Source: an uncultured Myxococcia bacterium (lineage in GTDB: Bacteria > CAZTWC01). Taken from it: a stretch of DNA of 52,547 bases. Of this stretch, positions 14,624 through 49,793 are shown piece after piece. Position 1 is the first letter of the stretch, and the number at the start of each line of letters is the position of its first letter. A model generated the notes under the pieces. That model searched no databases and was not told the origin of the DNA. It saw only the letters and a list, made by a program, of their open reading frames with translations. Position numbers and translations under genes: made by a program. The stretch covers positions 1 to 52,547 of the forward strand of contig CAZTWC010000004.1 in the NCBI GenBank assembly GCA_964617105.1, written 5' to 3'.

Positions 14624-14641
14624 CCGGCGTTATAATAAAAC

Positions 14642-16426: not shown

Positions 16427-16446
16427 AAACAAAAAGGAGATTAAAC

Positions 16447-17844: not shown

Positions 17845-17969
17845 CAAGAATTCGGATGCATCTCGGCTAACGTTGTTGCCGGCGTATAAATTATCCTCGG
17901 CGTATTATTTATACGCCTGTGGTAATTTTGCCACCGGCGCCTAGTTATCCGAGCGCCTCCAAATTCTTG
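17845..17969. repeat. ~125-bp palindromic intergenic element (MITE/REP-like; could act as bidirectional terminator)
   Basis: Terminal arms CAAGAATTCGGATGCATCTCGGCTAAC (17845-17871) and GTTATCCGAGCGCCTCCAAATTCTTG (17944-17969) are imperfect inverted repeats. Nested stems: GCCGG/CCGGC, AAATTA/TAATTT and GGCGTAT-TATTT-ATACGCC. Confidence 0.7.
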
Positions 17970-17977
17970 AGTTACCT

Positions 17978-20900
17978 TTAGTTACTACAGTACCCCTTAT
18001 TTGACATCTCAATCTCAATCAACGTCGCCTGTCCATCAGCGGGGTCGCGGGGGGTAATCTTAAATCCCACCGGTCCCGAGGCTTCTGGCATATCTTTGCA
18101 AGAATCCCAAACCAGGGTGTGAACCTGTCCGGGCTGAGTTTTTATTGAGGTCAAATGCCATTTTAAAACCTGGGACTGGTCAGTTATGGGTTGGTTATCT
18201 ATCTTAACAATTGTAGCAAAGGGCAGCATGCCTGAACCTGCCGCCCAGGGGCCCTGGGGATTGTATTGAGGCGCAATTGTAATTTTGTCGCTCTCTTCCG
18301 GATCTGTCAGATAAAAAGTTATTTCCACCTCCCCTTTCTGAAATCCCGAAGGAGTATCGATCTCCACCAGGGATGGCAAAGAGGTGTTGTCAATAGTCAA
18401 GGAGGTTTTTAGAGCAGGTTCTCCCTGCTCTCCGTCATAACCAAAAATACGAAAGATTACCCCTTCATATTTATAAGGTCCCAAATCGGCCATAGAATTC
18501 CAAAGAAAAACATGATCTGTGCCCTGGCTGGTGGTGGCTATCCCCTTTATCGGATTGGTTCCCTGAACCGGCGTGCAATCGATATACTCAATACCGTCAG
18601 AGGTAAAATCCAATCGCAGGTCAGATAGATCTCCCTCCTGATCAAGGAGGTTGAATTCGATTTTATATTCACCGGCTTCAACCCTTTCTATTTTGGAAAT
18701 AACTGCCTCCGGTGGATGGTTGGTATTTTTGACCAGCACTTTGATCTGCACCGGATCCCCGGTGATATGCTGATTATAAGGGGTAAATTGCAAAAATGCC
18801 ACTTGCTCCTCAAAGCCTATATCCAGGTCACTCTGCCAAATAAAGGTATACGATTTGCCTGAGGCATTGTCAGTAGTAAGGTTAGATATAGGGTCAGAAC
18901 CTTCTCCCAGGGCAGCTGGTTTAAAACCCTGGTCATTAACTGAATATTCCACTTTCAGGTTAGCCGTTTCTCCATTGGAATCAAAAAGGTTATAGGTAAA
19001 TTTGATTTGGCGCCGGTCAAAACCGGACAAATGCTGAAGATCCAAAACCTTTGGCGGTTTCAGAGTTCGGTTGTCGACTTCAAACTCAGCACTCTCCAAA
19101 AGATCGCCAATTTCCGTATCCCGGGGAGTAATTCTCACTTTAATATTCTCCCTCAGGTTGGGACAATCTTGTTTTGAATCCCAGATAAATTGATGCTCTG
19201 CCTCGGCAGTGTTGTTGCCATTGAGACAAGAGGATATATTTTTCATGGATGAGGAAAGAGCAGCCGGTGTGGCCAGGCTATATTGGTGGTCTGTAGCTGT
19301 CGCCAATTTTTGCTCTACTGTTATTGAAACCGGATCGCAGTCCAGGTCCAGAGTTTTGAAATTAATTTTGATATTTCCCTCTTTATCGGTGGGAGGAGTA
19401 ATCGATTTTATTTTCGGCAAATTGTTGCTGCCGCTGTTGTTTACCTTGAATTCCCCGCTTTCCAGAGGAGTGCCGCCCTGGCTGTGAGCAAAGTCATAGG
19501 GGGTTAGTTTAATTTTTATCCCTTCTGCCCGACCGGTTATATCCGCAGCAGAATCCCACTTGATTATAGTTTCCTTGCCATGGAGAGAACCCGAGGGAAG
19601 CCCCTGGAGAATTGTGCCACCGTCAACCAGAGAAGCATCTTGAAAAGTGTTATTAAAATAGTATTCCACCTTTAGATCCACCGAATCATTCTCCTGGTCT
19701 TTAACCAGGATTCCCAAGGCTGTCTGGCCGCTTACAATTCCGCCTGCCAATTTTTCCACCAACTCCACCTGAGGTGGGTGGTTGGGCCGGTTATCCAGAG
19801 TAAATTCACCGGTCTGATCCGGATTATTAAACTGAGAAGAGGTTGGGGTAATCTTAAATACCATCTTTTGGCTGAAGGTTGCCGGCAAATCGATGCCACT
19901 GTTCCAATTGTATTTGTACAACTTGCCGCCTTGTTCCATCTTTAATCCCGAATTCCCATCACCGCCGCTGCCCATGGTGGCGGGCTGAAAACTATTTCCA
20001 TCTACCGAATAATGGGCATTGATGTCGCAAAAAGCGTTATCTTCCCCCTTTATCTGGTACTCAAAAATAACCAGTCCCCTGGTTTTTCCCACCGGGGTAA
20101 ACATAGTTATATCAATAGGAGTCGTCACCGGGTTAAACACCTCAAAAGGCGCACTTTGCCCAGAGATGCCGGCAGAGAGGCTGTCTTTTGGAGTTATCCT
20201 GATAATCACTGTATTTTGAGCGCCCAGGCTATCGGCCACCGAATCCCAGAGAAATATCTTTTCTATTCCCGCTGCAGTAGCATTGATGCCAGAGGACAAA
20301 AAGTCGTTGACAGCGCTGCTAACCGGAGTGGCTCGATTAAAGGTGTTGCCAGAATCCAGGGAGTAATCGATATTAACCAAAACCAGATCTCCCCCTACCA
20401 GGGAATCTTTTACCGTAAATTTTATCTCCACCTCCCCATTTTTAACCGGGGCTACGCTTACAGGAGCCACATTTTCCACCACCGGCGGATGGAGTCCAAC
20501 ATTTTCCACCTGAAAACAATCGCTGGCAACTGGATCACCCTGATCCTGATCAGCAGGAGTAAACAGCATCCTTATGGTCCAGGGTCCACCGGCTTGCAGA
20601 TCCTTATAACTGTCCCAATCAAAAGTATAGTCAACTCCATCTGGTTTGGGCAGAGTGCTCATCTGCAGGGGAGATTCACTTCCCGGAGCCGGGCTGGCGT
20701 CATGGCAGCCGGCCTGGCAATCGAGCGATGATGAGCAAAGATTGTTGTCATTTATTATTTTATATTGGGTCTTTATGCTTATAGTATTAGCCTCTCCGTC
20801 CGCCACTTTCATGGTAATGGGGATAGTGCCTTTTTGAGTTCCAATAGGACTCTGCAAAGCAAATATTTCTGGCTTGGTATTTTGGGCTACATTGTTTACC

Positions 20901-23900: not shown

Positions 23901-25066
23901 TTTAACAGGTAAAGGGAATACTCCACCTCTATATTTACCGGATCACTCTCTAAGTCCTGCAATTTAAAGGTGATGGGCACCTGGCCAGTCAATTCACCCC
24001 GGGGCACCTTGACCTCCACCACTTTTGGAGGAGTTTTCAGGGGCTTGTTTTTAACTTGAAAAAAACCGCTCTCCACCTCTTTGCCCTGGTGGGTGTCTTT
24101 CGGAGTAATACTCAGCCGCACTTTATCGGCATCTATTTTAATATCAGCCATCGAGTCCCATTTAAAGGTGTTGTTTTTGAAGGTAGGTGCAGTGCTGATA
24201 TTTTCAGTTACGCTGTCCTGAGTAAGAGTGGCTGGATAGAAAATACCATTTTCTCCTACGGCAAATTTTACCAGAATCCTGGCCTGGTCCCCCTGGTCAT
24301 CCTTGATCCGGTAAGTTATCTTCACTGTGTCTTTTACCGTCTGCTGGGGAGTATCCAACTCCACGGTGGGCGGTGAAATTTTAGAGTTCTCTAACTGAAA
24401 TTCTCCACTCTCTTTCTCCGGACCGGCAATGTTTGGATCAGCAAAATCAAACGGTTTGAATTTCATCTTCACTTTGCCCTCAAAATTACCCAGGTCGTGA
24501 AAAGAATTCCATTTAAATATAAACTGCTGCCCCTGGGGAGAAGTCGATATGGGCTGAGACATATTTTCCAGGGGTCGGGCCGTTTTATAAGTTTTACCGT
24601 TGTCAATGCTGAAATAGGGCTCCAACCGAGCATAATCAAACTCCAAATCCAGCAGTTTCATGCTTATGGATATATCTCCTTTTTGCGCCCCGGTTGGAGT
24701 TATTAAGTCTATGATTTGCGGGGGAGTGTTTACTTTGGGGCCATCGGTTTTATCCTCCAGGCCTCCATCGTCCTCAGTTCCGGCAATCTCTTCGCCAGCA
24801 TCGGGGTCATCTGGATCACTTACCTCATCGTATCCACCGTCCACTTCTGCATCTATGATTTCTTCCCCGTTATCAGGAACTTCGATATCAGAAAAAATGA
24901 TACATTTGCCGCTAATACATCTCTTCCCTTCCAAACAGTCGGAAGAGATCTGGCACTCATACTCAATTTTTTTCTTCTTATCATCATCACCGCAACCCAT
25001 GGCAAAAAGCATAAGAACAAAGAGTAAACCGGTTGTAACTAAAAATGGAAACTTATTCCTAATCAT
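17978..25066 (-). CDS. giant surface lipoprotein (2362 aa), 19 tandem Ig-like repeats
   Basis: Lipobox FAMGC, C-x5-C-x5-C-x4-C motif, acidic DGG linker, then 19 repeats of ~115-125 aa (N.PP.....P.G....I.....D.E.D......YS.D......S.P.G....F.WDS..D......I.P.D...G....F.VDN), counted by eye. Confidence 0.9.
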   Translation of the reverse strand: MIRNKFPFLVTTGLLFVLMLFAMGCGDDDKKKKIEYECQISSDCLEGKRCISGKCIIFSDIEVPDNGEEIIDAEVDGGYDEVSDPDDPDAGEEIAGTEDDGGLEDKTDGPKVNTPPQIIDLITPTGAQKGDISISMKLLDLEFDYARLEPYFSIDNGKTYKTARPLENMSQPISTSPQGQQFIFKWNSFHDLGNFEGKVKMKFKPFDFADPNIAGPEKESGEFQLENSKISPPTVELDTPQQTVKDTVKITYRIKDDQGDQARILVKFAVGENGIFYPATLTQDSVTENISTAPTFKNNTFKWDSMADIKIDADKVRLSITPKDTHQGKEVESGFFQVKNKPLKTPPKVVEVKVPRGELTGQVPITFKLQDLESDPVNIEVEYSLYLLKDYKKATLVIGKDQVSGLQSSPAGTLYQVVWDSHVDTGDILVQEASLRIIPYDSAKGIAGYSTIFVLDNAKNKPPLITISTPQGVGARRDIIELETIVSDYESDPVKLFFQYSIDNGKTFQNLTLTSDSVNQNLATSKTGIKHQVKWDSSKDITKNATVIVKCWAQDAAAGSAALTSAFAVDNTPINTPPSINISQQMEGIFSNTVDIPFVLQDRDQETLTMTYKYSTDGVLYNDSTPAQGSAASLLAAAATGKIYTFKWDSLTDLGKKREETVRFKITVSDSSDKVSQEAGPFVVDNSEQNSLPIAIILSHEKVNSDGIKVIHYRLYDRESDPLSMEGQYSDGTVDHNQNLVFKPATGGTHPVYGVTATTNLFSTPSGTDNTFSWNIFNDLGGGIYNNLRFRITPKDSQTGAAAESDTFSVDMSQFNQPPSISIQQVQQLADKNVEIKYTLFNPYSTKSDLEIYYIRKNSGHRGVCTAAAGSGVKTDLATSPQGISYTFLWDAKKDLPAAQEEVSIEIMLTKPPLDVKNQSQVFFIDTRDNLPPQVKLDDLPCSSLAGQVEIPVTIFDQESNQVSLSVKYSLDKQNWLDITPANTSDDISNLSATPQGLKHLVVWDTLLDLADSQNSAQEVQLKFSPQDHLASGSTREISLTVDNRPNTKVTAFIDSVTINQQGLAEIKYYLEDQEEQKCCVKLEYLLPGGPTIEFSYALPAKDTVISDLQSSKAGQASIYHTFLWDAGRYLPPGSGQVTLKLTPFDVEEGIVAEKSTILQVSPNQVPIIEVDQVTSPLRGKVEIKFSLSDGDGDNLTALFEYSLDGSEGQFVEFHRMTGLPPSNGGKYLYVMDTEKLFGKTEKKGVVLRFTAEDKRGKGTPVLFTVDIDNRENGTPQLEILEVTGNSRFTTISYKISDPEGDRVDLKTQWTLSSDCQSTTLSWFNMTGAPGGSLLVGLDAPAAGKDYFLVWDSGYDLAKDTVANVCIRLTPMASDNNLSQGAAAVVQHLVNNVAQNTKPEIFALQSPIGTQKGTIPITMKVADGEANTISIKTQYKIINDNNLCSSSLDCQAGCHDASPAPGSESPLQMSTLPKPDGVDYTFDWDSYKDLQAGGPWTIRMLFTPADQDQGDPVASDCFQVENVGLHPPVVENVAPVSVAPVKNGEVEIKFTVKDSLVGGDLVLVNIDYSLDSGNTFNRATPVSSAVNDFLSSGINATAAGIEKIFLWDSVADSLGAQNTVIIRITPKDSLSAGISGQSAPFEVFNPVTTPIDITMFTPVGKTRGLVIFEYQIKGEDNAFCDINAHYSVDGNSFQPATMGSGGDGNSGLKMEQGGKLYKYNWNSGIDLPATFSQKMVFKITPTSSQFNNPDQTGEFTLDNRPNHPPQVELVEKLAGGIVSGQTALGILVKDQENDSVDLKVEYYFNNTFQDASLVDGGTILQGLPSGSLHGKETIIKWDSAADITGRAEGIKIKLTPYDFAHSQGGTPLESGEFKVNNSGSNNLPKIKSITPPTDKEGNIKINFKTLDLDCDPVSITVEQKLATATDHQYSLATPAALSSSMKNISSCLNGNNTAEAEHQFIWDSKQDCPNLRENIKVRITPRDTEIGDLLESAEFEVDNRTLKPPKVLDLQHLSGFDRRQIKFTYNLFDSNGETANLKVEYSVNDQGFKPAALGEGSDPISNLTTDNASGKSYTFIWQSDLDIGFEEQVAFLQFTPYNQHITGDPVQIKVLVKNTNHPPEAVISKIERVEAGEYKIEFNLLDQEGDLSDLRLDFTSDGIEYIDCTPVQGTNPIKGIATTSQGTDHVFLWNSMADLGPYKYEGVIFRIFGYDGEQGEPALKTSLTIDNTSLPSLVEIDTPSGFQKGEVEITFYLTDPEESDKITIAPQYNPQGPWAAGSGMLPFATIVKIDNQPITDQSQVLKWHLTSIKTQPGQVHTLVWDSCKDMPEASGPVGFKITPRDPADGQATLIEIEMSNKGYCSN

Positions 25067-28000
25067 TTAAAACCTCAAAATCATAAATTATAACCACATT
25101 GTTTCTAACAAAATCGGGATCATTCAGACTAGTTATCAATTTGTCCAGGTGACGGGCCAGGTCCGGATTATATTTTGTCAACGAGTCTTTTTGAACATTG
25201 GTACCTGTGCTTAGAGCATAACTTTTTTCTACCGGCAATCCCTTAACTATTTCAAGATTGTCGTTAAGAGCCACTATGTATCGGCGGCCAAAACGCCAAC
25301 CATCCCGAGGACGAAAGAGCAGATAGTGCTGGGGTACAAATCCGGTATTCCCATCACCAATTGAGATCGCCTGCAGTAAGGGAACCGCCACCACCAGATA
25401 ATTGACTGGCCTGGCCACCACCGTGCCCTGAGCGGTTACTTCTGCCAGCAGGCATGACTTACCAGGGCCATTTACTCTCAACGAACCTTCATCGATTTGA
25501 CCGGTAAAGGGGATAGCGGTAAATTTTTCCATGGCCGCATTACGGTTCTCCTCTTCTGCTTCCACACTACTTAATAATACTCCAGATATTGTCAACAAAC
25601 GTTGCACCAGGAGAGTTGACAAGTAATAAGAGCCCTTTTGCTGACCAATCTCTTCACTGTATTTTTGATCGATATTCAACGGCCATACAAAGGGATAGGG
25701 TAAAATCCTCTCTTTTATACTGAATAGCGGCCGGCTGGCTACCACCTCTACCGCTGTTTGCCCGGTCATCACGATGCTACCATTGACCATAGCCTGAAAA
25801 CCGGCCTCAAAGAAAGAGGGCACTAAAGGCGCCCTGGCCAATATCCGCCGGCTTTCTCCCGGCCGGGAGATATCCAATTTCCAGTTGTAAGTGGCGCCCT
25901 TCACCAGCGGAGCCTGCAAAATATACTCCTGTCCGGCGCCCACCAAAATCCTGTTGCCCTGTGACACCGCTTTTTGTGGAGAAAAACTGCTTATATACTC
26001 CAAAGGAGCAGCCAAAGGATAACCCTGCACCTGGGCTGATAAAGAGTTATCTCCAGGGCAGACTCCGGTCTCAGCCAAACAGGCCTTCTCTTGGCTGGCG
26101 CCACTGCCATTAAATTCACCTGAAAAAACCGCCCCGGTTTGATCTTCAGAGATTTTATCATCCATCTCTATATTACTGGCTATTTCCGCAGTCAATGCCT
26201 TCTTGCACATAGTACGGTCGCTTCCCCTGGACGTGATAGTGACCAGATGATAATCACCGAAAGAATCAGTCTCTTTTTTAACTATTAAAAGATCCGGGTC
26301 TTTAGTTAAAGTACTTAGATCCGCTTCTCCACAGAAATCGACTTTGACCAACCCCTGGCTTACACAGTTGAAAGCCAAATTGTAGGCTCCCTTGATCAAT
26401 TGAAACTCTTTTTGGCCGCGGTAAGTATTTTGAGCCAACTGCCAGGAAAAAGGATGATCCCGGCCATCCACTGTGACCCGGGCAAAACCTTCAAATAAAT
26501 CTACCACTAATTGGTCAAAAACTACGCCGCTGTTATCATAAGAATAGACACCTACCTTACCCTCTTCTATGGAATTCCCGTCCCAAACCTGAAACAGCAG
26601 ATCAGTTTCCGCATAGCCGCGGTCAGCATCATCCCAAAGGAAAGTACGGATGTTCTTTCCATCCACTTCTATCCGAACCAGATGCCATTGGCTGCCTGGC
26701 GAGTAAGTGGTAGAACTTTTTGCCAATATCTCAGGCACGCCATCCTTCACCTTGATCAGCCGGGAACCGGGTGTAGTCACCAATTTACCTTGCTCTGGAG
26801 GACCGGTTTGAATACTCTGGTAGAAGAGGTAGAAATTTTTCTGGTCCTTATACCTGAATACAAATCCGACTGCGCCCTTATCAAGGTTACGATAACGGCC
26901 GGTAAACACATAATTGTGCCAATTGCTGTTACCGCTGACCAGATAGTTGTCCTTAGGAGTATCCTCTCCATAGGGTTTTTCCAGGTCAGCCCCAATGTCT
27001 TTGACGCTAGTCAGGGGAATCACGCCAGAGATATTCTTGGTGCTCCACCCATCCAGGCTGTAACCGTTTTGCCATTTTGAACTGCTGCCGGCAAAATCGG
27101 GCGTGTCGGAGAGATTGAAATCCTCCTGCCAAAAATCGGCGTATAGTTCAGCCTGACAATCTTTAATATTTTCACTGCGAACGGAGTCACTCCACCCTAC
27201 CCCGGTTTTGTTCTGAGCCTGCACACAGAAATAATATTCATCAAAAGGCGTGTCGTCCGCAGGGAGTTTACTCTCCAATATAATTGAAGCGCCGCTGGTT
27301 TCAAGGCCTTCTGCGGTCGGCTGCCAATCTTCCTGACTGATGTTGTCACAGGTGTTGCCGCCACTCTCATTGAACTTCTTGACCACAAAACGAAACTTGT
27401 GAATCGGTGTTCCCTCTTGATCCTTTGCACTGGCCAGGCAAGAAAGTGTATTGGACAGGTTATATTTGTCTGAAACCTGGGCCGATATCTGATCAGGTGG
27501 AGTGAAATCCACCAGAAAAACCGGGCTTGACACTATCGATTCAAGCCCTTTGCCATCTCTGTCCAGAGAATTGTTCACCGCCTTAACCCTGGCCCGGTAG
27601 CGCTTTCCAGATTCCAGGTTTACACTTTCCACCGATGTGACGCTGCGAGCCAAAACTACATCGCGCCAAACCTGTTCACCTAAAGTAACCACCTCGGAAT
27701 CATCCACTCTCTCTATCTGGTAATAGTAATTGGTCACCTGGGAAATATCCTCTAAGAAAGGATCCCAGTTCAGGGAAATCTTGCCGCTTTTACCCGGTGG
27801 CAAAGCTGTATAATTAATATCATCCTGGATGGAGTCGTTAACTTGCACCATCACATTGTTGCCATTTGGCTTAGTAGTATCCACCGTCACTCCAACTCCA
27901 TGATGGAAGTTGCCGGTATTTTCGTTGCCAACATGATCCCGGGCTTTGACCAGCATATAATATCTCTTACCATGTTGGAGAGTGGGTGAAGTAATAGCCG

Positions 28001-38356: not shown

Positions 38357-41300
38357 TTACATGCCTCTCTGGAGTTATTTACGGTAAACAAATTGGATGC
38401 CCCGCTATCACCAAAGGCCGGATTAAAGGGGACTATCTCTATCTGCACATCGGTATAACAGGTATCGGGAAAATCTTTGGCTGAATCCCATTTGACGGTG
38501 TGTAGGCTCCCTCCAGGAGTAGCGGTCAAATTAAAAACGGTCTGGGCTTCGTTAACCACAGTGGCCAACACTCTGGTTTTGGCATTTGTCTCTCCACCAT
38601 CGGGTTGCTCTCCAACTCCGGCGTCTTGCAGAACAGAGTCCGGAACCTCACCTCCATCATTATCGATCTCTATAGTACCATCTTTTTCATCATATATATA
38701 GTAAACCTCAATACTGCTACTAGTTGCCTCCGGAGCAGTAAGGGTAAAGTTGATCTCAATATTGCCGCTGGTAAGCCCGGTTGGAGCCGTTACACTGGCC
38801 ACAGACACCCGGGGATTGCGATTATCAATATCGAATTCATCTGATAAGACCTCTTTACCTTCCGCCTCATCATTGGGTTTAATTTTGATCATTACCTTGA
38901 ATTCAAATCCATCTATATCTTTTTTGCTGTTCCAGATAAAATGGTGATCCTTTCCCTGGGGAGAGGATGCCACCCCCTCTATCTTTGGACTGTCATCAGC
39001 CAGGGTAAGTCCGCTAAAATCATCCCCTTCATTAACCGGCATGGTGACAAAGGAAACCGCCAGGTTCACGGGATCGCTCTCAGCATCTATTACGGTGTAT
39101 TCAAATTTAATTCTCCCCTTTAATTCACCCACAGGACCTTTTATTACCACCTGAGGCGGAGTGTTTATGTTGTCTAATTCAAAGGGGGCAAGGGTGACTG
39201 CCAAACCAGTGGCCTCTTTGGTAAAGGGTGTTAACCGCAAAGTAACAGAGTTGAAGTGCCTATACTCCAGATCCACAAAACTGTCCCAGATAAAATTATG
39301 TTTTACTCCCTCGGCAGAGGTGGCCAATTCGCTGTTACCCTCACACTCCTCGGCCATGGCAGCGGGAAAATAGGTTTGGCCGTCAAGGCTGTACTCCACG
39401 AATATATCTGCCCGGGTACTGCTTTTCTCTTTCAGGTTGTAATCTATTTTTACTTTGCCCCGTTGTTTTCCAAATAAATTTTCCACCTGGATAACCGGAG
39501 TGGCCAGGCCTGAATTATCAATAAAAAATAGTTCTGATTCACTGCTTGAACCATCAACAATGTCTGTAGGAGTTATTTGCAAATAGACACCGGTACGGCC
39601 GATTAAGCCCAAATCCTGTAAAGAATTCCACACAAAGGTGTGCTCTTCGCCCTGAGGAGAGGAGGTTAGATTGGTGACCGCTGACTGCTGTTCCTGTCCC
39701 GGAGCCACACTGGCCAGGGAGTAGTCGGTTTCGGTTTCAATCCTGAATTCCACCTTCACACTCAAGGGATCGCTCTGGGCATCTTTCAGTTTGTATTTAA
39801 AAGTGACGTTGCCATCCTGAACATCAGAAAAACTGCTGATAATAATAACCTCCGGCGGGGTATTGGTACCACTGTTATCAACAATAAAAGGGCCGGTCAG
39901 GTCAGATCGCAAGGGGTCAAACTGGGAAGCAAAATCTTTGGCCTGCAACCTGAAGATAATGTTTTCGTCTCTTTTGCCGTTCACCTGTCCGTGGCTATCC
40001 CAGGTAAAATTGTGCTCTATACCTTCTGCAGAGGATTCCAACTGGACTACCGGGCCGCTGTCAGCAGCGGATGTGCATTGCTGGTAATCAAAATCATTGG
40101 ATTTTACTTCAGCAGTAATGGCGGCCAGGTTGGAAGTTTCATCTTTTATTAAGTATTTAACCTCAATGTCACCGCTAAAAATCCCGGTCAGAGGCGGGTC
40201 GATAATTACTGTAGGCGGTTTGTTGGCCCGATTATCCACCGCAAAAGCAGCGGTCTGCCGGGGTTCTCCCCTGGCGGAATCGGAAGCCTCCATTTTAATG
40301 ACCACCTGCCTCTCCTCCTTTGCCCCCAAGTCTGCCATGCTGTCCCAGACAAAGGAATACATTTTTCCATCTTTACTGGTCTCCAGGTTGTCCAGGTCAT
40401 CACCCTGTCCCACTATCCTGGTGGCCGGGACGAAATTGATCCCATCTATTGAGACATCCACGGTAACGGAGCAAATGTCATCATCATCGTCAATTAAGAA
40501 ATAGGCTATTTCCACCTTATCCCGCTGAATAGTGGCCGGAGTAAATACCGCTACCCGGGGACGGGTGTTGGGCTTGCGGTTATCCAACTGAAACTCGCCG
40601 GTTATTACTGGTTCTCCGGCTGATTCGGCATCAGAAGGAGTTATCCGGAAATAGACCTTATCCACCAACTTATTAACCACATCCTGGCTTGAATTCCATT
40701 TGAATACATACTCTATCCCCAGGGGCGAAGTGAGCCGTCCCTGATCAACATAGGCATCTTCACTGCCATCTACCGGAGTAGCAGCCATATAACTAACGCC
40801 ACCGTCTATAGAGAATTGCGGCAGAATAAAAGCACTGTGACTTTGACCGTCCTTTAGAGTGAAATTGATCTCAACCTGATTGCTTTGACGCCCGGCCGGG
40901 GTCTGTATAGTTACAACAGGCGGCGACAGTTGCCGGTTATCCACCTCCATCAAAGAGGTCACCACACTGGTACCCAACAGGGAATCTTTGGGGGTGAAGC
41001 GAAATTTTATTTTTTTTGGACCCTGTAAACCAAAGTCTGCCACCGAGTTCCAGGAGAAGATATGCTCCACACCATCTGGCTCCGGAGCAGAGGACAACTC
41101 TTTCATACTTTTACTTTCCGGCGCTAAAGTGGCGGGTTGAAAAGTGCCGTTCTCCTCTTTTACCTCCACCGTCACCTCAGTGGGGCTGTATTCACTGTCT
41201 TCCAACTTGAATTTAAAACCCACATTACCCGATACCGGAGAGGTGGGTATATAGATGAGAGTCAATTGGGGCGCAGTGTTTCCTCCGGCGTTATCTACTG

Positions 41301-44300
41301 TAAATTTGCCGCTGAATGCAGCCTGACCATACTCCTTGCCATCAAAAGCAACTATTTTGAAACGCACATGTTGGTATTTCTCCTGTCGCAAGTCATGAAA
41401 ACTGTTCCAGACATATTGGTGATTTACCCCGGCAATGGAAGTTGTCAAACTTTTGAGCGGCGGGCTGCTTTTAGCCTGGTGGGCAGTAAAGAAGGGAGCA
41501 CTGCTGTCGGGCTCGTCGGTAAAGGCGAAAAACATAGCCAGATCCACTTTGTCTGCCTCCTGGTCTTTTACCTGAAAATTGATATTAACCAGCCCCCGCT
41601 GGGGAGAGGTCGGGGTGGTGACAATCACCTGGGGCGGATTGTTGAGCCGGTTGTCAACCGTAAAAGGAACGGTGCAGTTAAAAGCCTGACTCACCAAGTC
41701 CTCAACCTGAATACAGAGTCTAACTCCCTGGTACAATTGTTCACCAAGATCAGCCCTGGAGTTCCATACAAAAATCATATTTACCCCGGTGGGAGCTGAG
41801 GGCAATTTGGCCGGCAACCGGATCTGAGTATCCTGGGCGGCCGATTTAAAGGTGGTCCCACCCAGAGAATAGGTGATCTGCCAGGACAATTCATCACTTT
41901 GACCGTCAAAAACGCTAAAGCCAAAATTGACATCCTCTTTTTGCAAACCACTGATAGGTTCGATAGTGATTGAAGGAGTAGTATTGATACGGTTGTTTAC
42001 GGTAAAATTTTCGCTAACGGTTTCCTGTCCCAGGGCAGCATCTCTGGGAATAATTTTAAAAATCACCTCGGATAAATTTTCCCCCATATCTTTGAGGCTG
42101 TCCCACTGAAAAACATGGGAAATTCCAGCCGAAGAACTGGCCAGGCTGGTAACTTTACCATCCTTACTGGAGGCTTCAAAATAACTAACACCGCCATCCA
42201 AAGAGTAAAAGGCATCTATATTTACGAAGGAACTTTCCTGATCTTTCAAGTAAAACACTATATCCACCCGGTCTCGAAGCACTCCGATAGGGGTGGTGAT
42301 AATCACTTCCGGCGGAGTGTTGGGCCGGTTATCCACCACAAAACTCTCACTGTCAACCGCAGCCCCTTGCTGCTCATCAGAAGGTGTCATTCTGATTATG
42401 GCCTCTCCCTGAAAGGAGTCGGCCAGATCATCATGGGAGCGCCAGATAAATTTGTACTCTTCACCAACAGGAGATGAGGCTATATCCTTGGTTTTGGTGG
42501 AATCGGGAGATGGGGTGGCTACCTGATAGCTTTGGCCGTTATCAGTGGAGTATTCCACTTTGACAGAGACCAATTCGCCCTCCAAATCTACTACTTTATA
42601 ACCAATTTCTATATCAAAACTCTGAATACCCTCTACAAGTTCTATGGTCAATACCGGCAGGCTGTTGATAGTGTTATCCAAGTTAAAAATACTGGTGGCC
42701 GTTTTTTGGCCGCTTCCCTGGGCATCCGAGGGGATGGCTACCAGAGTCATATTTGAGATACGATTGATCCCCAAATCTGCCACACTGTCCCAAACCAAAC
42801 TATGGGATACTCCTTCCAGGGATGCGGGCAGATTGGAAAGTCCGTCCCCGCCCTGCCCGGGAGTGATGCTGGTTAGAGTTTCTCCCTGGTCTGGAGAGTA
42901 GTAAACATCCAGGTTAACCAAATCTCCGCTATTATCCTTGAGAGTATAATTTACCTGAACTTGCTGCCCAACCAACGCTGGCAGAAGTTCAAATTCGATA
43001 AGCGGTTCGGTAAAAACATCTTTTAAATTGATGACAAATTTGATCTCTCCTGGAGTGCCTTGCTGCTCGTCTTTGGGAGTGATGCGGAAGTGCACCTCCT
43101 CTATATCCACCCGGCCCAGATCTCTAATGGCATGCCAGCCAAAAAAATAGGTGTTGCCAACGGGAGAAGCGGGAATATCCAGAATATGCTTTTCCGGGAT
43201 ATTACCAAACTCGGTGATAGCCATCCGGTCAGGATCGATAAAATTGGCTGGGCTGTAATTTTGCCCTCCGTCCAGCGAGTATTCCACCTGGATATCCACA
43301 TAGTCCGATTCCCGATCAGCCACTATATACTCCACCGGCACTACTCCCTCCCCCTGCATCTCATCCACCCCCAGAACCACCACCATGGGTGGAGCATTAC
43401 CATCCACGTTGTCCAGCACAAAAGGCTCTGAAAAGGCAGGTTCACCCTCATCAAAGTCAGAGGCCTCAATGCGGAAAATAACCCCATCGTGCCTGGTTTT
43501 GCCTAAATCGGTGAGGCTGTCCCAGGTAAAGGTATAATTTATTCCATCAACAGAAGAAGCCACAGCCTTGGAAAAATCAACCGCCCCTGCCACTTCGGAG
43601 GCGGTATTAAAAAGGCCTCCTCCATTGGTGGAGTAAAAAAACTTGAGATTAACCATGGAGTTTTCATAGTCTTTAACTTCAAAATTTATCCTCACCGGGC
43701 CGGTATTCATCCCCTGCAGAGGATAGATGGCCACCCGAGGCGGTGAATTGATAACAAAACGGTTGTCCACCTGAAAATCGGCGGTTTCGCCAAAGATACC
43801 CTCTTGTCCATCAGCAGGAATCACCTTTACCCTGACGTTGCGGGCCAGTTGATCAACAATATCGGTATCAGAACTCCAGGTTAACTTGTGTAAATATCCA
43901 TCCTTACTAGTGACCAGGCTATTTAAAGCCTCGCTAACAGTGGCGTCACTATAGGTTTGCCCTCCGTCAAGGGAAAATTTTACCTTTAGATCTACCAGAT
44001 CCTCCTCCTGGTCACTAACAGTAATCTCCAACTGAACCGGTCCGTGCTGTATTCCGGCTGGTGTAGCAACTATGACCACCGGTTTTTGATTTTCACCACT
44101 TGTACCCTGGTCGTTGTTGACCGTAAAAGACATAGTATGGACAGTGTCTTCATTTTCTCCGTCACTGGCAATAATCCGGAAAACCATATTTTCCTTTTTT
44201 ACGGCGCCAATATCGGTGCGGCTGTCCCAGGTAAAGGTGTATTTGATCCCTTCGGGTGAAGTTGCCAAAGGAAAGGGTGGAAAATCTCTGGCCGTGGCTG

Positions 44301-47300
44301 CGGACTGGTACAGAGTCTGGTCATCGGAGAAGTGGAAAGAAACATTTACCCCTTTGCTCTCTTCATGCTTAATAATAAACTCTACCTGGATCTCTCCTTT
44401 TTGTTCACCGTCCAGGGGCAAAATCGACAATTTCAAAGGATTTTCCAGGGTGATATCCAAATTATCTACTTCAAAGTCTGTGGTTTCCGCCGCAGTACCC
44501 ATCTGGCTGTCAGCCGGAGTGACTTTGACCCGAACCGTTTTTTGATTTTGATTTACAATATCCACTGCTGATAACCAGGTTATCACATGCCTGGTGCCAT
44601 TGGCGGAACTCTCCAGGCCCAGAGGAGAAGCCAACATGGAGGCGGCCAGATAGGTAGCCCCCGAGTCAATGCTGTATTCCACGGTAAGATCTACCAGATC
44701 CTCTTCAGCATCAGTAATGACCACTTGAAGCCCAATCTCACTCTTTTGTACTCCCACCGGAGACTTTATTATTGCCACCGGCTTTTCATTGTCAGGTCCC
44801 TCTCCTGCGGGCGAGTTGTCCACTATAAAGGGAGCAGTTTCTCTCTCCATTTGGATCAAACTGTCGGAAACTTGAATTTTAAAAACCACATTTTCCGCTT
44901 TTATCTCTCCCAAATCCTGGCTACTGTTCCAATAGTAAATATATTTTTCTCCCGCCACCGAAGTGGGCAAGGGGTTGCTGGGAAAAGAACGGGCAGTGGA
45001 GGCGGGATAGAAAGTAACCCCATCGGTAGAAAAGAAAAAGCGCGCTTCCACCGGGCTGGCTTCATCATCTTTGATTCCAAAGTTGATTGGTATATCTCCC
45101 TTTTGAGTCTGGCTAAAATCGCTGAATATCTCCAATTGCGGCGGTGTATCAAAGATCTCCCGGTTGTCAACCTCAAAGTCAGCGGTTTCTCCGGCTACCC
45201 CGGCCTTATTGTCAAAGGGCGTAACTTTGATTCTTACTGTGTCTGCCTGTTGCCGGACAATATCCACCTGGGACAGCCATTTAACAGTGTGGACAATTCC
45301 CTCTGAGTTAGTGACAAAAGAGTTTAGGGAAGTGGACATAGAGGCGGGTTGATAACTGGCCCCGCTGTCAATAGAGTACTCTACCTGAAGGTCAACCACA
45401 TCTTCTTCCGAATCGCTCAGGCGAATTTGCAGGCTTACTTCGCCGGTTTGGGTATCTTCCGGGGTGCTAATCAGGGCCACGGCTTTTTCATTATCAGATC
45501 CGCCCGGACCGGCGCTGTTATCCACCACAAAAGTCTGGCTGTCAATATTTATCTGGTTGACACCATCATTGGCGGCGATTCTGAAGACCACTCCCTCCTG
45601 CTTGATGTAACCAAGATCTGAAGCGCTGCTCCAGGTGAAAATATATTGCTGGCTGATATTTTGGGTAGAAATGGGATTTTCAGGAAAATCACCACTTAGA
45701 GTGGCGGAATAGAAATCTGTACCGTCGGTAGAATAGTAGAACCTTAACTCTACATTGTCTTTTTCCGAATCCTGAAGAGAAAAAACTACATCGATGTTGC
45801 CCTTCTTTACCCCTTCTAAGGCCGGTGTAAAAATAATTTCCGGCGCCGAGTTTATTGTGGGCCGGTTATCAACCACAAACTCCTCAGTTTCACCGAAAAA
45901 TCCCTCCTGGCCATCATCTGGATAGATCCTGACTTTTACTTTATCGACTCTAGCCGAAGGGATATCCACCTGTGAATGCCAAAGTATGGTATGGACTGTA
46001 CCTTCCAGAGTGGCTTCAAGCCCAATCAATTCACTGCTAACGGTGGCTTTTGAATATAAGATGCCTCCATCGATGCTAAATTCAACTTTGCTGATATCTA
46101 CCAGATCCCCTTCCGGGTCACTCAGGCTAACGCTCAAAACCACATTGCCTCTTTGGTCTCCCTGGGGAGTGGCTATGGACGCAGCCGGAGCCTTGTTCTC
46201 CACGCCGCTGCCTCCAGTGCTATTGTCAATGGCAAAGGGTGTGAAATGTTCTTTTATCTCACTATGGCCGTCATGGGCAATAACCCGGAATATAATCCAG
46301 TTTTCCTTGACATTACCCAAATCTCCCCGACTATCCCAGATAAAGGAATAGCGTTTGCCGGTGGGGGAACTTTCCAGAGGATTTTTAGCAAAAGCCCGGC
46401 TGGTGACAGCACCGATAAAATCGATATTGTCGGTGGAATAGAAGAAAGTCACATCCACAGGATCACTCTCTTTATCCTTTAAGATAAAGTCAAAAGGGAT
46501 TTCACCCTTTTGTACCTGGCTGAAAGAGTTGGTGAAAACTATTTGGGGAGCCTGATTGGTGGTATAGATGGTATTATCAACTATAAAATCAGCGGTTTCA
46601 CCGCTTACACCGGTTTCAATATCGCTGGGGGTAACTCTTATGCGTACCAAATTCTCCAATCGGTTGGGGATATCCACCTGGGAGAGCCAATGGAGAAAAT
46701 ATTTGCTGCCCTTGGAAGATGTGCTCAAGCCGGTCATTTGGTCGGAAGAATCCATAACTGCCTCCTCAAAGGAGTTGCCCTGGTCAAGAGAATATTCCAC
46801 CTGCAGATCCACCATGTCTCCTTCCTGGTCGGAGATATTAACTTCCAGTTCAACCCTGCCTTTTGCCGCCCCTGCCGGAGTTTTAACGGTAGCCACCGGC
46901 TTATGGTTGGTGTCCGGCCCGGTGCCGCCATCCGGCCGGTTGTCCACCGTAAAGGGGGCGCTGGTGGCGATTACCTGGTGCTTTCCGCTTTCTACTTTGA
47001 TACGGAAAAGCAGGTTTTCCGTCATAATTTTCCCCAGGTCAGCCAGGCTGTCCCAAAAATAGATATAATTTTTCCCCTGGACCAAAGAGGCCAGGGGATT
47101 GTCTGGAAAGGAACTGGAAGTGGAAGTGGCTAAAAACAGTTGCCCATCAGTAGAAAAAGAAAAAGAAGTGTCCAGGGGTAAAGAACGGTTACTCTTAAGG
47201 ATAAATTTTATTTCCACCTGCCCCTTTTGAGTCCCAACCAGGGGTTCGATAGTAATTTCCGGCGGCAAGTCATCCCTGGTATCCACTGTGAACTCACCGC

Positions 47301-49644
47301 TTTCGGCTGCTGCTCCTGCAGCGGTGTCAATGGGAGTGACCCTTACCTTAACGTTTTCTTCCAGTTTGTCCGGCATATCCTGGCCAGCCTGCCAATGGAA
47401 AAGATGCTCTTTTCCCTGGGCCAAGGCTACCAAACCTTTAAGACTTTCCTTCATGGCTGCCAGGTTGTAAGTGTTGCCACTATCCAGCGAGTACTCCACT
47501 TTCAGGTCTACAGAATCGTTCTCCGGATCAAAAATGGTAACAGTTAAAGGCACCTCTTGGGTCTGAAAACCGGCAGGGGTTTCAACTTCCACGCTGGGTC
47601 TTTGGTTCACTACTTCCGGCAAGTTGTTTACCTCAAAGGGAGGGGAATCTTTGGTAACCATATTTCTACCATCGTCAACACTTACTCTGAAAATGACGCC
47701 AGTTACATTTTTTTGCCCCAAATCCTTTTCGCTGTCCCAAATAAAAGTGTAGGACTTACCGGTAGGAGAGGTGGCTACCTGCCTGGTAGAAAAGGGTTGG
47801 GCAGAAGTAGCGGGGCTGAACAGTTTGCCATCGCGGGAAAAGAAAAGATCTATATTCACCGGGTCTTTATCTTGATCCTGGAGGCTGATCTTGATCTCCA
47901 CCTGCTTTGATTGTACTCCAGACAAAGGAGATATGTTGATCTCAGGCGGAGTATTATCTCGATTATCTACTGTAAAGGCACTGCTTTCAGCCGGGCTGCC
48001 GGATTTAAGGTCAAAGGGAGATATTTTTATTTTTACCTGCGGGTAGAGTTTTTTCTCCAAATTTTTACTGGCCTCCCAGACTACCTCATGGACTCTTCCC
48101 TGGGGAGAAGTTGGTAAATCGTTGGTTTTTGAGATTTTGTCCAGAAAGGCGGTCTGAAAGGTTATTCCATTGTCAATAGAATAATGAACTTCTATCCGAG
48201 CCGGATCATATTCCGGATCGCTGAGGTTGAAGGAGATTTTCACTTTTTGGTATTGAACTCCAGAGGGGGTGTTAACAGTGGCGCTCGGGGGGATATTGCC
48301 TTGGTTGTCAATATCAAAGGGCATAGTTACGGCAGGATTTCCCTGGTGGGCGTCTGAAGGAGTAATTTTAAAACGTATTCCGGATATCTTTACCTTACCC
48401 AGGTCATGTAGACTTCGCCAGACAAAAAAATGTTTCACCCCAGCGGGGTCGGAGGCCAGATCCTTAACCTTGGTAACCGATGTGTGGGTGGCCAGGCTGC
48501 AACTGGTGCTCTTGGGCAGGCAAAACTCCCCTTTTATGGATATCTTGTCGCTCTGGAGATCTTTTATAGAATATTCGATTTTAATAAATCCACCCTGCTC
48601 CCCCTTGGGAGTCAGTAGAGTTACTTCCGGCGGCGAAGAGAGAGGCCGGTTATCTACCGTAAATTGCCGGGAAATTTTGGCAATTCCGGGATTGATATCA
48701 GCCGGGATAATTTGGATCTTTACCTTAAACAAACCCTCTCCGGTATCATCCAAAGAGTTCCAGATGAATTTATGCTTGATTCCGGTTTTAGAGGTGTCCA
48801 GGTTCTCCCGGGGACCATCTTTAATGGTCATGTGAATAAAACGGCCATTGCCCAAATCAACCTGGGGAATTACACTGGCCTTGTCCGCCTCCGAGTCTTT
48901 AATGGTAAATTCAATGCTTATATCACCGCTCCCCGTTTCCGGGACACTAATAGATTCAATTTGGGGCGGAGAAAGATGAAGATTGTCGAGTTGAAAGGTG
49001 TCTGAAATTGCATCTTTTCCTTTGACACCTGGATACACCGCATCGACAGGAGTCATTCTGATCTTCACGTTTCCGGAAAAAGTGGGCAGGTCGGCGTTGG
49101 AGTGCCAGACAAATATGTGCTTTTCCCCTTTTGGAGAGGCCGATACTGCATCCAGTAATATAGTTGACGGTTGAGGCAACTGGGTAGCCTTTGAATAATT
49201 TTTGCCCTGGTCTATGCTAAACTCCACTTCCAGGTTGATGTCATTATATTCTCCATCAATAGCAGAAAACGAGATATCCACCTGGCCAGACTGTTTTCCC
49301 TGGGGCGTAGTTATGGTCAGAGAGGGCGGAGTATTTTCTTGATCAGCGTCAGTGCCCCCATCCGGCTCATCGGTGAGTTCTGTATCTCCGCCATCAGGTT
49401 CTTCGGTTTCACCTATTATTTTTGATAAACAGGTGCCATTGATACACATTTCGTTGACAGAACAATCATCATGGGATGAGCATCGTTTGGCCGATGGAGC
49501 ACTTGGATCGCCGCAAGCGGAAAAAAGAATTACCTTCAGAGTAAAAAGAAATATTAACATTATAGGCCGGGCCATAGTTCTGTAACTGATTAGGGCCTGA
49601 TAAGGTGGTCTATTTTTATTCCAAATCAGGTAAGGTGTATGCAT
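38353..49644 (-). CDS. giant surface lipoprotein (3763 aa), 31 tandem Ig-like repeats; paralog of 17978..25066
   Basis: AAGGAG RBS before ATG 49644, lipobox ILFSAC, C-x5-C-x5-C-x4-C motif, PDGG acidic linker. 31 repeats with the same W[DN]S..D / F.VDN consensus as the 2362-aa protein, counted by eye. Confidence 0.92.
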   Translation of the reverse strand: MHTPYLIWNKNRPPYQALISYRTMARPIMLIFLFTLKVILFSACGDPSAPSAKRCSSHDDCSVNEMCINGTCLSKIIGETEEPDGGDTELTDEPDGGTDADQENTPPSLTITTPQGKQSGQVDISFSAIDGEYNDINLEVEFSIDQGKNYSKATQLPQPSTILLDAVSASPKGEKHIFVWHSNADLPTFSGNVKIRMTPVDAVYPGVKGKDAISDTFQLDNLHLSPPQIESISVPETGSGDISIEFTIKDSEADKASVIPQVDLGNGRFIHMTIKDGPRENLDTSKTGIKHKFIWNSLDDTGEGLFKVKIQIIPADINPGIAKISRQFTVDNRPLSSPPEVTLLTPKGEQGGFIKIEYSIKDLQSDKISIKGEFCLPKSTSCSLATHTSVTKVKDLASDPAGVKHFFVWRSLHDLGKVKISGIRFKITPSDAHQGNPAVTMPFDIDNQGNIPPSATVNTPSGVQYQKVKISFNLSDPEYDPARIEVHYSIDNGITFQTAFLDKISKTNDLPTSPQGRVHEVVWEASKNLEKKLYPQVKIKISPFDLKSGSPAESSAFTVDNRDNTPPEINISPLSGVQSKQVEIKISLQDQDKDPVNIDLFFSRDGKLFSPATSAQPFSTRQVATSPTGKSYTFIWDSEKDLGQKNVTGVIFRVSVDDGRNMVTKDSPPFEVNNLPEVVNQRPSVEVETPAGFQTQEVPLTVTIFDPENDSVDLKVEYSLDSGNTYNLAAMKESLKGLVALAQGKEHLFHWQAGQDMPDKLEENVKVRVTPIDTAAGAAAESGEFTVDTRDDLPPEITIEPLVGTQKGQVEIKFILKSNRSLPLDTSFSFSTDGQLFLATSTSSSFPDNPLASLVQGKNYIYFWDSLADLGKIMTENLLFRIKVESGKHQVIATSAPFTVDNRPDGGTGPDTNHKPVATVKTPAGAAKGRVELEVNISDQEGDMVDLQVEYSLDQGNSFEEAVMDSSDQMTGLSTSSKGSKYFLHWLSQVDIPNRLENLVRIRVTPSDIETGVSGETADFIVDNTIYTTNQAPQIVFTNSFSQVQKGEIPFDFILKDKESDPVDVTFFYSTDNIDFIGAVTSRAFAKNPLESSPTGKRYSFIWDSRGDLGNVKENWIIFRVIAHDGHSEIKEHFTPFAIDNSTGGSGVENKAPAASIATPQGDQRGNVVLSVSLSDPEGDLVDISKVEFSIDGGILYSKATVSSELIGLEATLEGTVHTILWHSQVDIPSARVDKVKVRIYPDDGQEGFFGETEEFVVDNRPTINSAPEIIFTPALEGVKKGNIDVVFSLQDSEKDNVELRFYYSTDGTDFYSATLSGDFPENPISTQNISQQYIFTWSSASDLGYIKQEGVVFRIAANDGVNQINIDSQTFVVDNSAGPGGSDNEKAVALISTPEDTQTGEVSLQIRLSDSEEDVVDLQVEYSIDSGASYQPASMSTSLNSFVTNSEGIVHTVKWLSQVDIVRQQADTVRIKVTPFDNKAGVAGETADFEVDNREIFDTPPQLEIFSDFSQTQKGDIPINFGIKDDEASPVEARFFFSTDGVTFYPASTARSFPSNPLPTSVAGEKYIYYWNSSQDLGEIKAENVVFKIQVSDSLIQMERETAPFIVDNSPAGEGPDNEKPVAIIKSPVGVQKSEIGLQVVITDAEEDLVDLTVEYSIDSGATYLAASMLASPLGLESSANGTRHVITWLSAVDIVNQNQKTVRVKVTPADSQMGTAAETTDFEVDNLDITLENPLKLSILPLDGEQKGEIQVEFIIKHEESKGVNVSFHFSDDQTLYQSAATARDFPPFPLATSPEGIKYTFTWDSRTDIGAVKKENMVFRIIASDGENEDTVHTMSFTVNNDQGTSGENQKPVVIVATPAGIQHGPVQLEITVSDQEEDLVDLKVKFSLDGGQTYSDATVSEALNSLVTSKDGYLHKLTWSSDTDIVDQLARNVRVKVIPADGQEGIFGETADFQVDNRFVINSPPRVAIYPLQGMNTGPVRINFEVKDYENSMVNLKFFYSTNGGGLFNTASEVAGAVDFSKAVASSVDGINYTFTWDSLTDLGKTRHDGVIFRIEASDFDEGEPAFSEPFVLDNVDGNAPPMVVVLGVDEMQGEGVVPVEYIVADRESDYVDIQVEYSLDGGQNYSPANFIDPDRMAITEFGNIPEKHILDIPASPVGNTYFFGWHAIRDLGRVDIEEVHFRITPKDEQQGTPGEIKFVINLKDVFTEPLIEFELLPALVGQQVQVNYTLKDNSGDLVNLDVYYSPDQGETLTSITPGQGGDGLSNLPASLEGVSHSLVWDSVADLGINRISNMTLVAIPSDAQGSGQKTATSIFNLDNTINSLPVLTIELVEGIQSFDIEIGYKVVDLEGELVSVKVEYSTDNGQSYQVATPSPDSTKTKDIASSPVGEEYKFIWRSHDDLADSFQGEAIIRMTPSDEQQGAAVDSESFVVDNRPNTPPEVIITTPIGVLRDRVDIVFYLKDQESSFVNIDAFYSLDGGVSYFEASSKDGKVTSLASSSAGISHVFQWDSLKDMGENLSEVIFKIIPRDAALGQETVSENFTVNNRINTTPSITIEPISGLQKEDVNFGFSVFDGQSDELSWQITYSLGGTTFKSAAQDTQIRLPAKLPSAPTGVNMIFVWNSRADLGEQLYQGVRLCIQVEDLVSQAFNCTVPFTVDNRLNNPPQVIVTTPTSPQRGLVNINFQVKDQEADKVDLAMFFAFTDEPDSSAPFFTAHQAKSSPPLKSLTTSIAGVNHQYVWNSFHDLRQEKYQHVRFKIVAFDGKEYGQAAFSGKFTVDNAGGNTAPQLTLIYIPTSPVSGNVGFKFKLEDSEYSPTEVTVEVKEENGTFQPATLAPESKSMKELSSAPEPDGVEHIFSWNSVADFGLQGPKKIKFRFTPKDSLLGTSVVTSLMEVDNRQLSPPVVTIQTPAGRQSNQVEINFTLKDGQSHSAFILPQFSIDGGVSYMAATPVDGSEDAYVDQGRLTSPLGIEYVFKWNSSQDVVNKLVDKVYFRITPSDAESAGEPVITGEFQLDNRKPNTRPRVAVFTPATIQRDKVEIAYFLIDDDDDICSVTVDVSIDGINFVPATRIVGQGDDLDNLETSKDGKMYSFVWDSMADLGAKEERQVVIKMEASDSARGEPRQTAAFAVDNRANKPPTVIIDPPLTGIFSGDIEVKYLIKDETSNLAAITAEVKSNDFDYQQCTSAADSGPVVQLESSAEGIEHNFTWDSHGQVNGKRDENIIFRLQAKDFASQFDPLRSDLTGPFIVDNSGTNTPPEVIIISSFSDVQDGNVTFKYKLKDAQSDPLSVKVEFRIETETDYSLASVAPGQEQQSAVTNLTSSPQGEEHTFVWNSLQDLGLIGRTGVYLQITPTDIVDGSSSESELFFIDNSGLATPVIQVENLFGKQRGKVKIDYNLKEKSSTRADIFVEYSLDGQTYFPAAMAEECEGNSELATSAEGVKHNFIWDSFVDLEYRHFNSVTLRLTPFTKEATGLAVTLAPFELDNINTPPQVVIKGPVGELKGRIKFEYTVIDAESDPVNLAVSFVTMPVNEGDDFSGLTLADDSPKIEGVASSPQGKDHHFIWNSKKDIDGFEFKVMIKIKPNDEAEGKEVLSDEFDIDNRNPRVSVASVTAPTGLTSGNIEINFTLTAPEATSSSIEVYYIYDEKDGTIEIDNDGGEVPDSVLQDAGVGEQPDGGETNAKTRVLATVVNEAQTVFNLTATPGGSLHTVKWDSAKDFPDTCYTDVQIEIVPFNPAFGDSGASNLFTVNNSREACK

Positions 49645-49712
49645 ATGATTCTCCTTGATTATAAGGGCCTTATTTTATCCGAATCGATCCTTTTTGAACG
49701 AAGTAAAATTAA

Positions 49713-49744
49713 ATTATTGACTTAATTTCATATTTTGTCATAAT
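49713..49744. promoter_or_regulatory. candidate overlapping divergent promoters for the giant-protein cluster and the PEGA gene
   Basis: Plus strand: TTGACT(49717-49722)-16 bp-CATAAT(49739-49744) with TGn extension. Minus strand: ATGACA(49741-49736)-17 bp-AATAAT(49718-49713). The AT-rich context lowers specificity. Confidence 0.35.
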
Positions 49745-49793
49745 TTTGTAAAATTTTCTATAGGAAAAATGACCTATACAGTCGGAGTTGACC

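Follow-up and report, generated by a model that had tools for sequence, protein, structure and literature searches.

A cluster of three genes for giant predicted lipoproteins of tandem beta-sandwich repeats, and a duplicated gene pair, in an uncultured Myxococcia bacterium

Three overlapping genes for giant predicted lipoproteins, here called A, B and C, lie on a 52,547-nucleotide stretch of DNA from an uncultured Myxococcia bacterium (contig CAZTWC010000004.1 of assembly GCA_964617105.1, hereafter the window). Their products amount to ~10,557 residues, in line with the more than 10,500 first estimated, and are best read, with a confidence slightly above even, as three separately anchored, co-expressed surface adhesin rods. 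The window is the entire contig C4 of a draft genome (4.07 Mb, 489 contigs, 96.5% complete) that is the sole representative of its phylum in the compared genome set and is without close relatives there. An earlier inspection of the letters alone (the original prediction) had described the cluster and proposed a heteromeric surface apparatus; its observations are confirmed and its interpretation is partly supported.

Open reading frame (ORF) calling gave four minus-strand frames, at 38353-49644 (3,763 residues), 28004-38356, 25059-27956 and 17978-25066 (2,362 residues), and these reduce to the three genes originally claimed, the middle pair being split only by a scaffold gap (Table 1). One contig each of sequencing runs X3 and X5, two of the four runs aligned there, bridges the gap at a depth of ~2-2.5 with four extra bases, so that both halves of B fall into a single frame, which starts at the ATG at 38353 and has 4,432 codons. 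A middle gene that is truly broken or mis-joined, leaving four genes or an assembly artefact, is very improbable: the two halves do sit in different frames in the assembly and the gap is bridged by single contigs of low depth, but the two runs give the identical gap size and restore the frame, the gap falls within a single FN3 repeat, and an unbroken paralog, B′ (2,495 residues, contig C94), aligns with both halves. Four genes or a frameshift were rejected as a gap artefact and are largely refuted.

A ends in a stop codon (38355-38353) that runs into the ATG of B at 38353, and eight bases (25059-25066) are common to the stop of B and the start of C, as had been noted; this overlap suggests that A, B and C may be co-expressed. 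The lipoboxes FSAC, LFGC and AMGC recognized earlier in A, B and C, respectively, each follow a hydrophobic stretch and were called by pattern. A, B and C are real genes. Their identity to paralogs is 0.53-0.60, 0.65-0.66 and 0.35-0.38 at the first, second and third codon positions, a pattern that points to selection acting on the proteins. The stretch is present, whole or in part, in eight public DNA runs of marine or seawater metagenomes from two studies, and contigs from five of these were aligned onto it; over A, the contigs of four runs show no joints and a single synonymous difference (A in place of G at window position 45586 in all four, the third codon position of Val1353).

A is composed of the lipobox, a short four-cysteine motif, an acidic linker and 31 tandem immunoglobulin (Ig)-like repeats of ~113 residues, which continue up to the C-terminus. 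C has the same motif and linker followed by 19 repeats; neither protein has a separate head, and both are acidic (isoelectric point, pI, 4.5-4.6). Repeats 5-16 of A originated by duplication of a two-repeat unit, and the final repeat carries an acidic insertion and a Cys pair. Together with the 25 FN3-type repeats of B, these arrays agree with the description of the proteins as mostly tandem beta-sandwich repeats. Indeed, a single A repeat is predicted to fold as a beta-sandwich (predicted local distance difference test score, pLDDT, 97.5), and the structure search that the original prediction had suggested for single repeats matches this model to FN3 and PKD domains: the best structural matches are contactin FN3 domains (Z 10.3, root-mean-square deviation 2.8, 98 aligned), a PKD domain gives Z 9.4 (deviation 2.7, 92 aligned), and the best match in Foldseek is a PKD domain (E 3.4e-4). 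Invasin and cadherin are absent from the matches listed, a listing that does not exclude them. No convincing family for the repeat was found in Pfam or NCBIfam, and its profile has no relative among PDB sequences (best E 0.2); by language-model features, three tandem repeats group with unnamed Atlas clusters (0.95-0.96, low recognition). Reelin_subrepeat-B exceeded its whole-protein cut-off in A solely through summed short pieces, none significant alone, and the match is read as a recurring S-x-D-x-G loop and not as family membership. A weak match to DUF7107 at residues 54-74 of A is below cut-off, as is a match to tandem-95 (24.3 vs 90 bits). The conserved polar residues over the 69 repeats of the genome are Asp, Glu and Asn located at both ends of the domain (N2 in 48/51, D28 in 60/68, E30 in 40/68, D32 in 43/68, D98 in 59/68, D113 in 48/64 and N114 in 59/60). 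By analogy with RTX extenders, this pattern suggests calcium-bound linkers; it also resembles cadherin linker motifs.

B begins with a lipobox and a base module of ~485 residues. Next come 25 FN3-type repeats, the gap-spanning one counted once, alongside a few more domains of Ig size, and the protein closes with a lectin-like domain and a tail. About 16 central repeats are a homogeneous expansion, each with a Cys pair, and residues 501-2250 carry a net positive charge. Language-model features liken the base module to a DNRLRE cluster of the Atlas (0.95), and paralogs of this module are encoded on contigs C94 and C421. The lectin-like domain is identical between B and B′ at 88 of 199 positions, and a structure prediction of this region from three sequences was unusable (pLDDT 37.8). 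Scans of A, B and C with Pfam and NCBIfam found no catalytic, hydrolase, peptidase or toxin domain, and a WapA/Rhs polymorphic toxin was rejected as a candidate because the same scans gave no Rhs match in B. Two paralogous poly-Ig proteins thus flank one FN3/lectin-like protein, as was first proposed, the lectin part of that claim being tentative, with matches below cut-off.

A-type repeats are found in only five frames of the genome, namely A, C and three contig-end fragments. The fragments are collinear with A repeat for repeat: that on C170 corresponds to repeats 1-4, that on C385, after its first three, to repeats 17-22, and that on C94 to repeats 26-31. On C94, B′ begins 13 bases after the A-type C-terminus, and no C-like gene comes after B′. 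Because C170, C385 and C94 could not be joined by sequence overlap, A′ as one gene rests on this collinearity. The second locus A′-B′ has the order A-then-B and is collinear with the main locus at ~45% identity, with third codon positions near saturation. A third B-type gene, B″, starts on C421 after a short unrelated ORF, without an A-type gene upstream, and probably runs on into C75 as one gene; its tail has a weak PKD match. In total, A-type genes adjoin a B-type gene in 3/3 cases, and B-type genes follow an A-type gene in 2/3. The repeated unit is therefore the A-B pair, not the triad, with a single duplication as its source. The triad that had been taken as the unit is not conserved, given the lack of a C-like gene after B′ and the short unrelated ORF before B″; what stands of the proposed two structural stalks and one head-bearing subunit is a pair of headless, stalk-like paralogs plus a single protein that bears terminal modules. 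At the main locus both partners exceed their counterparts at the second in length (31 repeats in A vs ~21 inferred for A′; 25 FN3-type repeats in B vs 11 in B′), and this parallel lengthening of the stalks, seen at two loci, is a lead and not a statistical result. The pI of B′ is 4.7, so that this protein is acidic. By eye, two genes upstream of A′ on C170 look like the MotA/MotB type, and a FliJ-like gene lies farther on.

Matches to the A-repeat profile comprise 3,572 protein clusters at E 0.001 and 542 at 1e-30. In the majority of the 150 best-matching proteins, among them two fragments of A and C, the repeat covers just part of the chain; 34 have a lipobox pattern, many others end by eye in apparent C-terminal sorting tails, and none contains the B-type FN3 repeat. 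Other domains (NHL, RCC1, Kelch, C25, FG-GAP, FGE and carboxypeptidase-regulatory) were detected in 10 of 12 proteins scanned, the remaining two having repeat-loop matches only (P0021) or none (P0026). Named carriers are Planctomycetota, Ca. Rifleibacterium and unclassified bacteria. Among 400 other genomes, surveyed for the two repeats with different E-value limits and at most 11 candidates scored per genome, the A repeat is present in 38 and the B-type FN3 repeat in 21; seven genomes have both, always on different contigs among the matches listed. Twenty flanks, selected from the best matches in 14 of these 38 genomes and in several cases cut short by contig ends, show no neighbouring gene for an FN3 array, a base module or a lectin domain; in two of them a giant neighbour has one FN3-type match. 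The Ig/FN3/Ig triad, for which a synteny check with hidden Markov models (HMMs) of both repeats had been advised, is accordingly not syntenic in these flanks. The A repeat is a widespread spacer module in unrelated architectures, and within this survey the A-B pairing was found only in the source genome. Relatives of the N-terminal module of B were found neither in protein searches covering 327-6,024 residues nor in genome or metagenome contigs nor in the PDB; weak partial matches occur in three of the 400 genomes, two of them upheld by a three-sequence profile (E ~1e-10). The C-terminal repeats of A have no relatives in genome contigs and one distant metagenome locus, with no B-type neighbour by eye. 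These contig scans rely on short exact patterns and are blind to distant relatives, and the broad repeat alignment is too variable for a locus scan. One genus (G142:C7, G142:C4 and G297:C106) encodes a ~2,230-residue protein with 16 A-type repeats beside a secA-like gene; in G297 a short gene with five repeats and a Pro-Glu tail follows, and a similar protein, P0007, has an FG-GAP head.

The scans with Pfam and NCBIfam found no RTX, type I secretion system (T1SS) signal, autotransporter, two-partner secretion, type IX secretion system (T9SS) tail, PEP-CTERM or MYXO-CTERM match in A, B and C, and the ORF list and Pfam scan show no secretion gene within the cluster, both as originally reported. 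Searches of the genome itself for T9SS tails and MYXO-CTERM also gave no match, but their controls were silent too, which makes them uninformative. The genome encodes LspA, LolA and Omp85 proteins as well as four secretins, belonging to a type II secretion system (T2SS), PilQ and two systems read by eye as Tad-type. In the gsp cluster, GspC, D, E, F, G and N score over cut-off and K and M below, and GspC is of the deltaproteobacterial type. The lipoproteins InvL and PulA depend on GspN to be displayed at the cell surface, and a G/S- or N/D-rich sorting signal after the lipidated Cys has been defined in Acinetobacter (PMC12802150); InvL is a barrel-less lipoprotein adhesin (PMC9245377), and Lig proteins are Ig-repeat surface lipoproteins of tandem genes, assigned to the Lol route (PMC7821625). 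A, B, C and A′ have many G, S, D and N residues just after this Cys, and B′ does not. The lack of an export signature had been considered special, but since Lig and InvL are known and the genome has a T2SS cluster with GspN, it is not; an unexplained export route was rejected, LspA, LolA and the T2SS with GspN being present. A lipobox pattern is found in 21 of the 74 genome ORFs of at least 1,000 residues with an intact 5′ end, although this pattern overlooks A and some of its calls may be false, and lipid-anchored giant proteins therefore seem to be a habit of this organism.

As separately anchored rods, A, B and C would be produced from what is likely one co-transcribed operon, exported by Sec, lipidated, and then likely transferred to the cell surface by T2SS/GspN, each protein forming its own N-terminally anchored rod. 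A and C would consist of a single unnamed Ig-like domain repeated along an acidic, headless chain that is probably stiffened by calcium, and B would be an FN3 chain likely to bind glycans via its lectin-like tip. Together they may attach the cell to particles, to biofilm matrix or to other cells, A and C supplying reach, spacing or repeat-mediated contact. At ~4 nm per domain, the rods formed by A, B and C would be roughly 125, 130 and 75 nm long, respectively. Several points weigh against this reading. The base module of B has no CBM96, DNRLRE, Pfam or NCBIfam HMM match even at permissive E-values, and the matches of the lectin-like domain to PF06439 (E 1.1e-4; 22.8 vs 26.8 bits) and PF05735 (E 3.2e-3; 17.7 vs 25.6 bits) are both below cut-off. 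Because Cadherin_5 scores below its cut-off (20.6 vs 26.5 bits), calcium binding rests on motif conservation. Passage of chains of 260-490 kDa through the T2SS is hypothetical, and the T2SS substrates named in the papers cited are not known to reach this size; a Lol route with an unknown flippase, as proposed for Lig, is equally possible. Finally, a B-type gene beside 3/3 A-type genes and a pair that has survived deep divergence fit a closer partnership than that of independent rods.

Such a partnership might amount to co-assembly: A and B, joined by C as a further A-type subunit, would form one lipid-anchored fibre of matched chain lengths, the tip-bearing FN3 rod being braced by acidic A-type rods. 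If true, co-assembly with matched lengths would be an undescribed kind of surface fibre. The duplicated A-then-B order, retained at ~45% identity with third codon positions near saturation, the 3/3 adjacency, the greater length of both partners at the main locus and the acidity of A and C opposite the positively charged part of B argue for it. However, we consider it unlikely, since each protein has a separate lipobox, the triad is lost at the second locus, B″ has no A-type gene upstream, and the length trend comes from two loci of one duplication with A′ spread over three contigs. Because B′ is acidic, the charge complementarity is not conserved, and the surveys of other organisms told against the pairing: the 150 best A-repeat proteins are free of the B-type FN3 repeat, the 20 flanks from 14 genomes have no B-type neighbour, and the matches listed for the seven genomes with both repeats lie on different contigs. 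A complex prediction for the last two A repeats with the lectin-like region of B (score 0.01, mark 0.32) offers one guessed interface and is evidence neither way. Equally doubtful is the fuller proposal that A- and B-type proteins are obligate partners in a heteromeric, doubly lipid-anchored fibre of >100 nm, with calcium-stiffened bracing rods, a lectin tip, joint lengthening and T2SS export. A protective or spacing coat, that is, a dense acidic brush holding off phages, predators or neighbouring cells and not adhering, would suit the headless, acidic A and C of 2,400-3,800 residues and a genome that invests in many giant lipoproteins, including a 3,574-residue frame with Cys-rich repeats on C5. 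Its probability nevertheless seems low, as the lectin-like tip and DNRLRE-like base are retained in all B paralogs, the A repeat elsewhere displays binding or enzymatic heads, and no S-layer or lattice feature was seen. The rods could also serve a predatory or epibiotic way of life as adhesins for contact with prey or host, in view of the four secretins, the deltaproteobacterial-type GspC and the giant proteins of Omnitrophota that have been linked to prey adhesion (bioRxiv 10.1101/2023.11.21.568195). This appears distinctly improbable given that the domain scans of A, B and C detected neither hydrolase nor peptidase nor toxin domains. Moreover, secretin machines of this kind occur in non-predators too.

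The coordinates of these and other features are collected in Table 1. A 126-base hairpin directly after C may form the transcript end; it recurs in 26 distinct genome places of at least 60 bases, with ~73-85% identity in the best matches, and resembles a repetitive extragenic palindromic sequence or a miniature inverted-repeat transposable element. Terminator-like sites are at chance level (22 against 21.2; 14 against 15.6) and give no support for internal terminators. Three convergent plus-strand genes at 13970-17841 encode a lipoprotein with a weak Lsa25.6-family match, a TPR protein and a Leptospira ImpL63-like protein (E 3e-59, below cut-off). At 49788-52547, also on the plus strand, two divergent genes encode a PEGA-domain protein and a lipoprotein-like product with Cu-binding_MopE motifs; the frame of the latter is truncated by the end of the contig. 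Further giant frames of 2,500-3,600 residues, several with lipoboxes or Cys-rich repeats, are found on genome contigs C5, C67, C79, C20 and C122.

Table 1. Coordinates of the gene cluster, its parts and its paralogous loci (window positions unless a contig is named)
Feature	Position	Strand	Remarks
Gene A	38353..49644	-	3,763-residue predicted lipoprotein, predicted lipidated Cys45
Gene B	25059..38353	-	4,432-residue predicted lipoprotein, single gene across scaffold gap; alternative GTG start at 38356
Gene C	17978..25066	-	2,362-residue predicted lipoprotein, Cys25, paralog of A
Repeat array of A	38374..49338	-	residues 103-3757
N-terminal (base) module of B, ~485 residues	36527..37984	-	unnamed domain then DNRLRE/CBM96-like domain, by language-model features only
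FN3-type array of B	27159..36232	-	25 repeats and two other Ig-sized spacers; Pfam fn3 E 3e-41
Lectin-like domain near B tip	26550..27197	-	3-keto-disaccharide hydrolase/thrombospondin C-terminal-like; in all three B-type genes
C-terminal ~500 residues of B	25062..26549	-	small beta domain common to B-type genes, then tail without Pfam match
Scaffold gap	28020..28029	.	written as 10 N; 14 bases in bridging contigs, B stays in frame
Upstream region of A	49651..49741	-	ribosome-binding site 49656-49651; sigma-70-like site 49741-49713, 10/12, consensus match only
126-base hairpin repeat	17845..17970	.	directly after stop of C, between convergent genes; -54 to -60 kcal/mol
Second A-B locus, three contigs	C94 2838-12420; C170 3-1505; C385
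Third B-type lipoprotein B″	C421 920-2572 and C75 1-7891		own 10-N gap; beta-propeller insert; weak PKD match

The cluster, preferably read as separate rods, combines known parts in a new way and is not proven to be a new machine. What is surprising is its size, the headless rods, a repeat that is unnamed yet common, and a gene pair duplicated with parallel stalk growth in an orphan phylum, and the locus illustrates surface building in a lineage with a single genome in the compared set. The 113-residue repeat is a common unnamed stalk module of uncultured bacteria that is easily expressed and whose calcium binding is easily assayed, and headless lipoproteins of 2,400-3,800 residues, if displayed by T2SS/GspN, would probe the size limit of surface-lipoprotein export. 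No description of giant lipoprotein Ig/FN3 clusters in uncultured or Myxococcota-like bacteria was found in the literature searched, most subscription journals and supplements being outside its coverage.

Comparison with known systems places the cluster near several surface proteins. The Lig repeats are ~90 residues long and belong to the Big_2 family, whereas those of A and C are ~113 residues and have no Big_2 match at E 0.01; A, B and C also exceed the Lig proteins in length by a factor of 2-3, and B, the partner, consists of an FN3 array with different modules at its ends. LigA and LigB of Leptospira are likewise elongated tandem Ig-like lipoproteins encoded by tandem genes, without barrel or RTX signal, and calcium binding is reported for them (PMC7821625); LigA has 13 Ig-like domains. 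InvL of Acinetobacter baumannii and PulA of Klebsiella share the lipobox, the lack of a barrel and export genes placed elsewhere in the genome (PMC9245377; PMC12802150), but no sequence likeness of the repeat to invasin or any solved structure was found in the PDB search, and T2SS dependence of A, B and C is putative. Like the extenders of the RTX adhesins MhLap, AhLap, MpIBP and a Salmonella adhesin, in which linker calcium is described as stiffening the chain (PMC7493085), A, B and C contain long beta-sandwich arrays, with conserved acidic ends in the A-type repeats. They differ from these adhesins in their N-terminal lipid anchor and in lacking RTX repeats and a T1SS signal, and A and C have no distal ligand-binding domain. 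WapA is described as having an N-terminal domain of unknown kind followed by a DNRLRE domain, the order predicted for B (PMC12704120; PMC9971899), whereas B is a diderm lipoprotein with an FN3 array after its base and has no Rhs core or toxin and no DNRLRE HMM match. By analogy, then, the cluster is likened to the Lig, InvL and RTX-extender adhesins and is a member of none of them.

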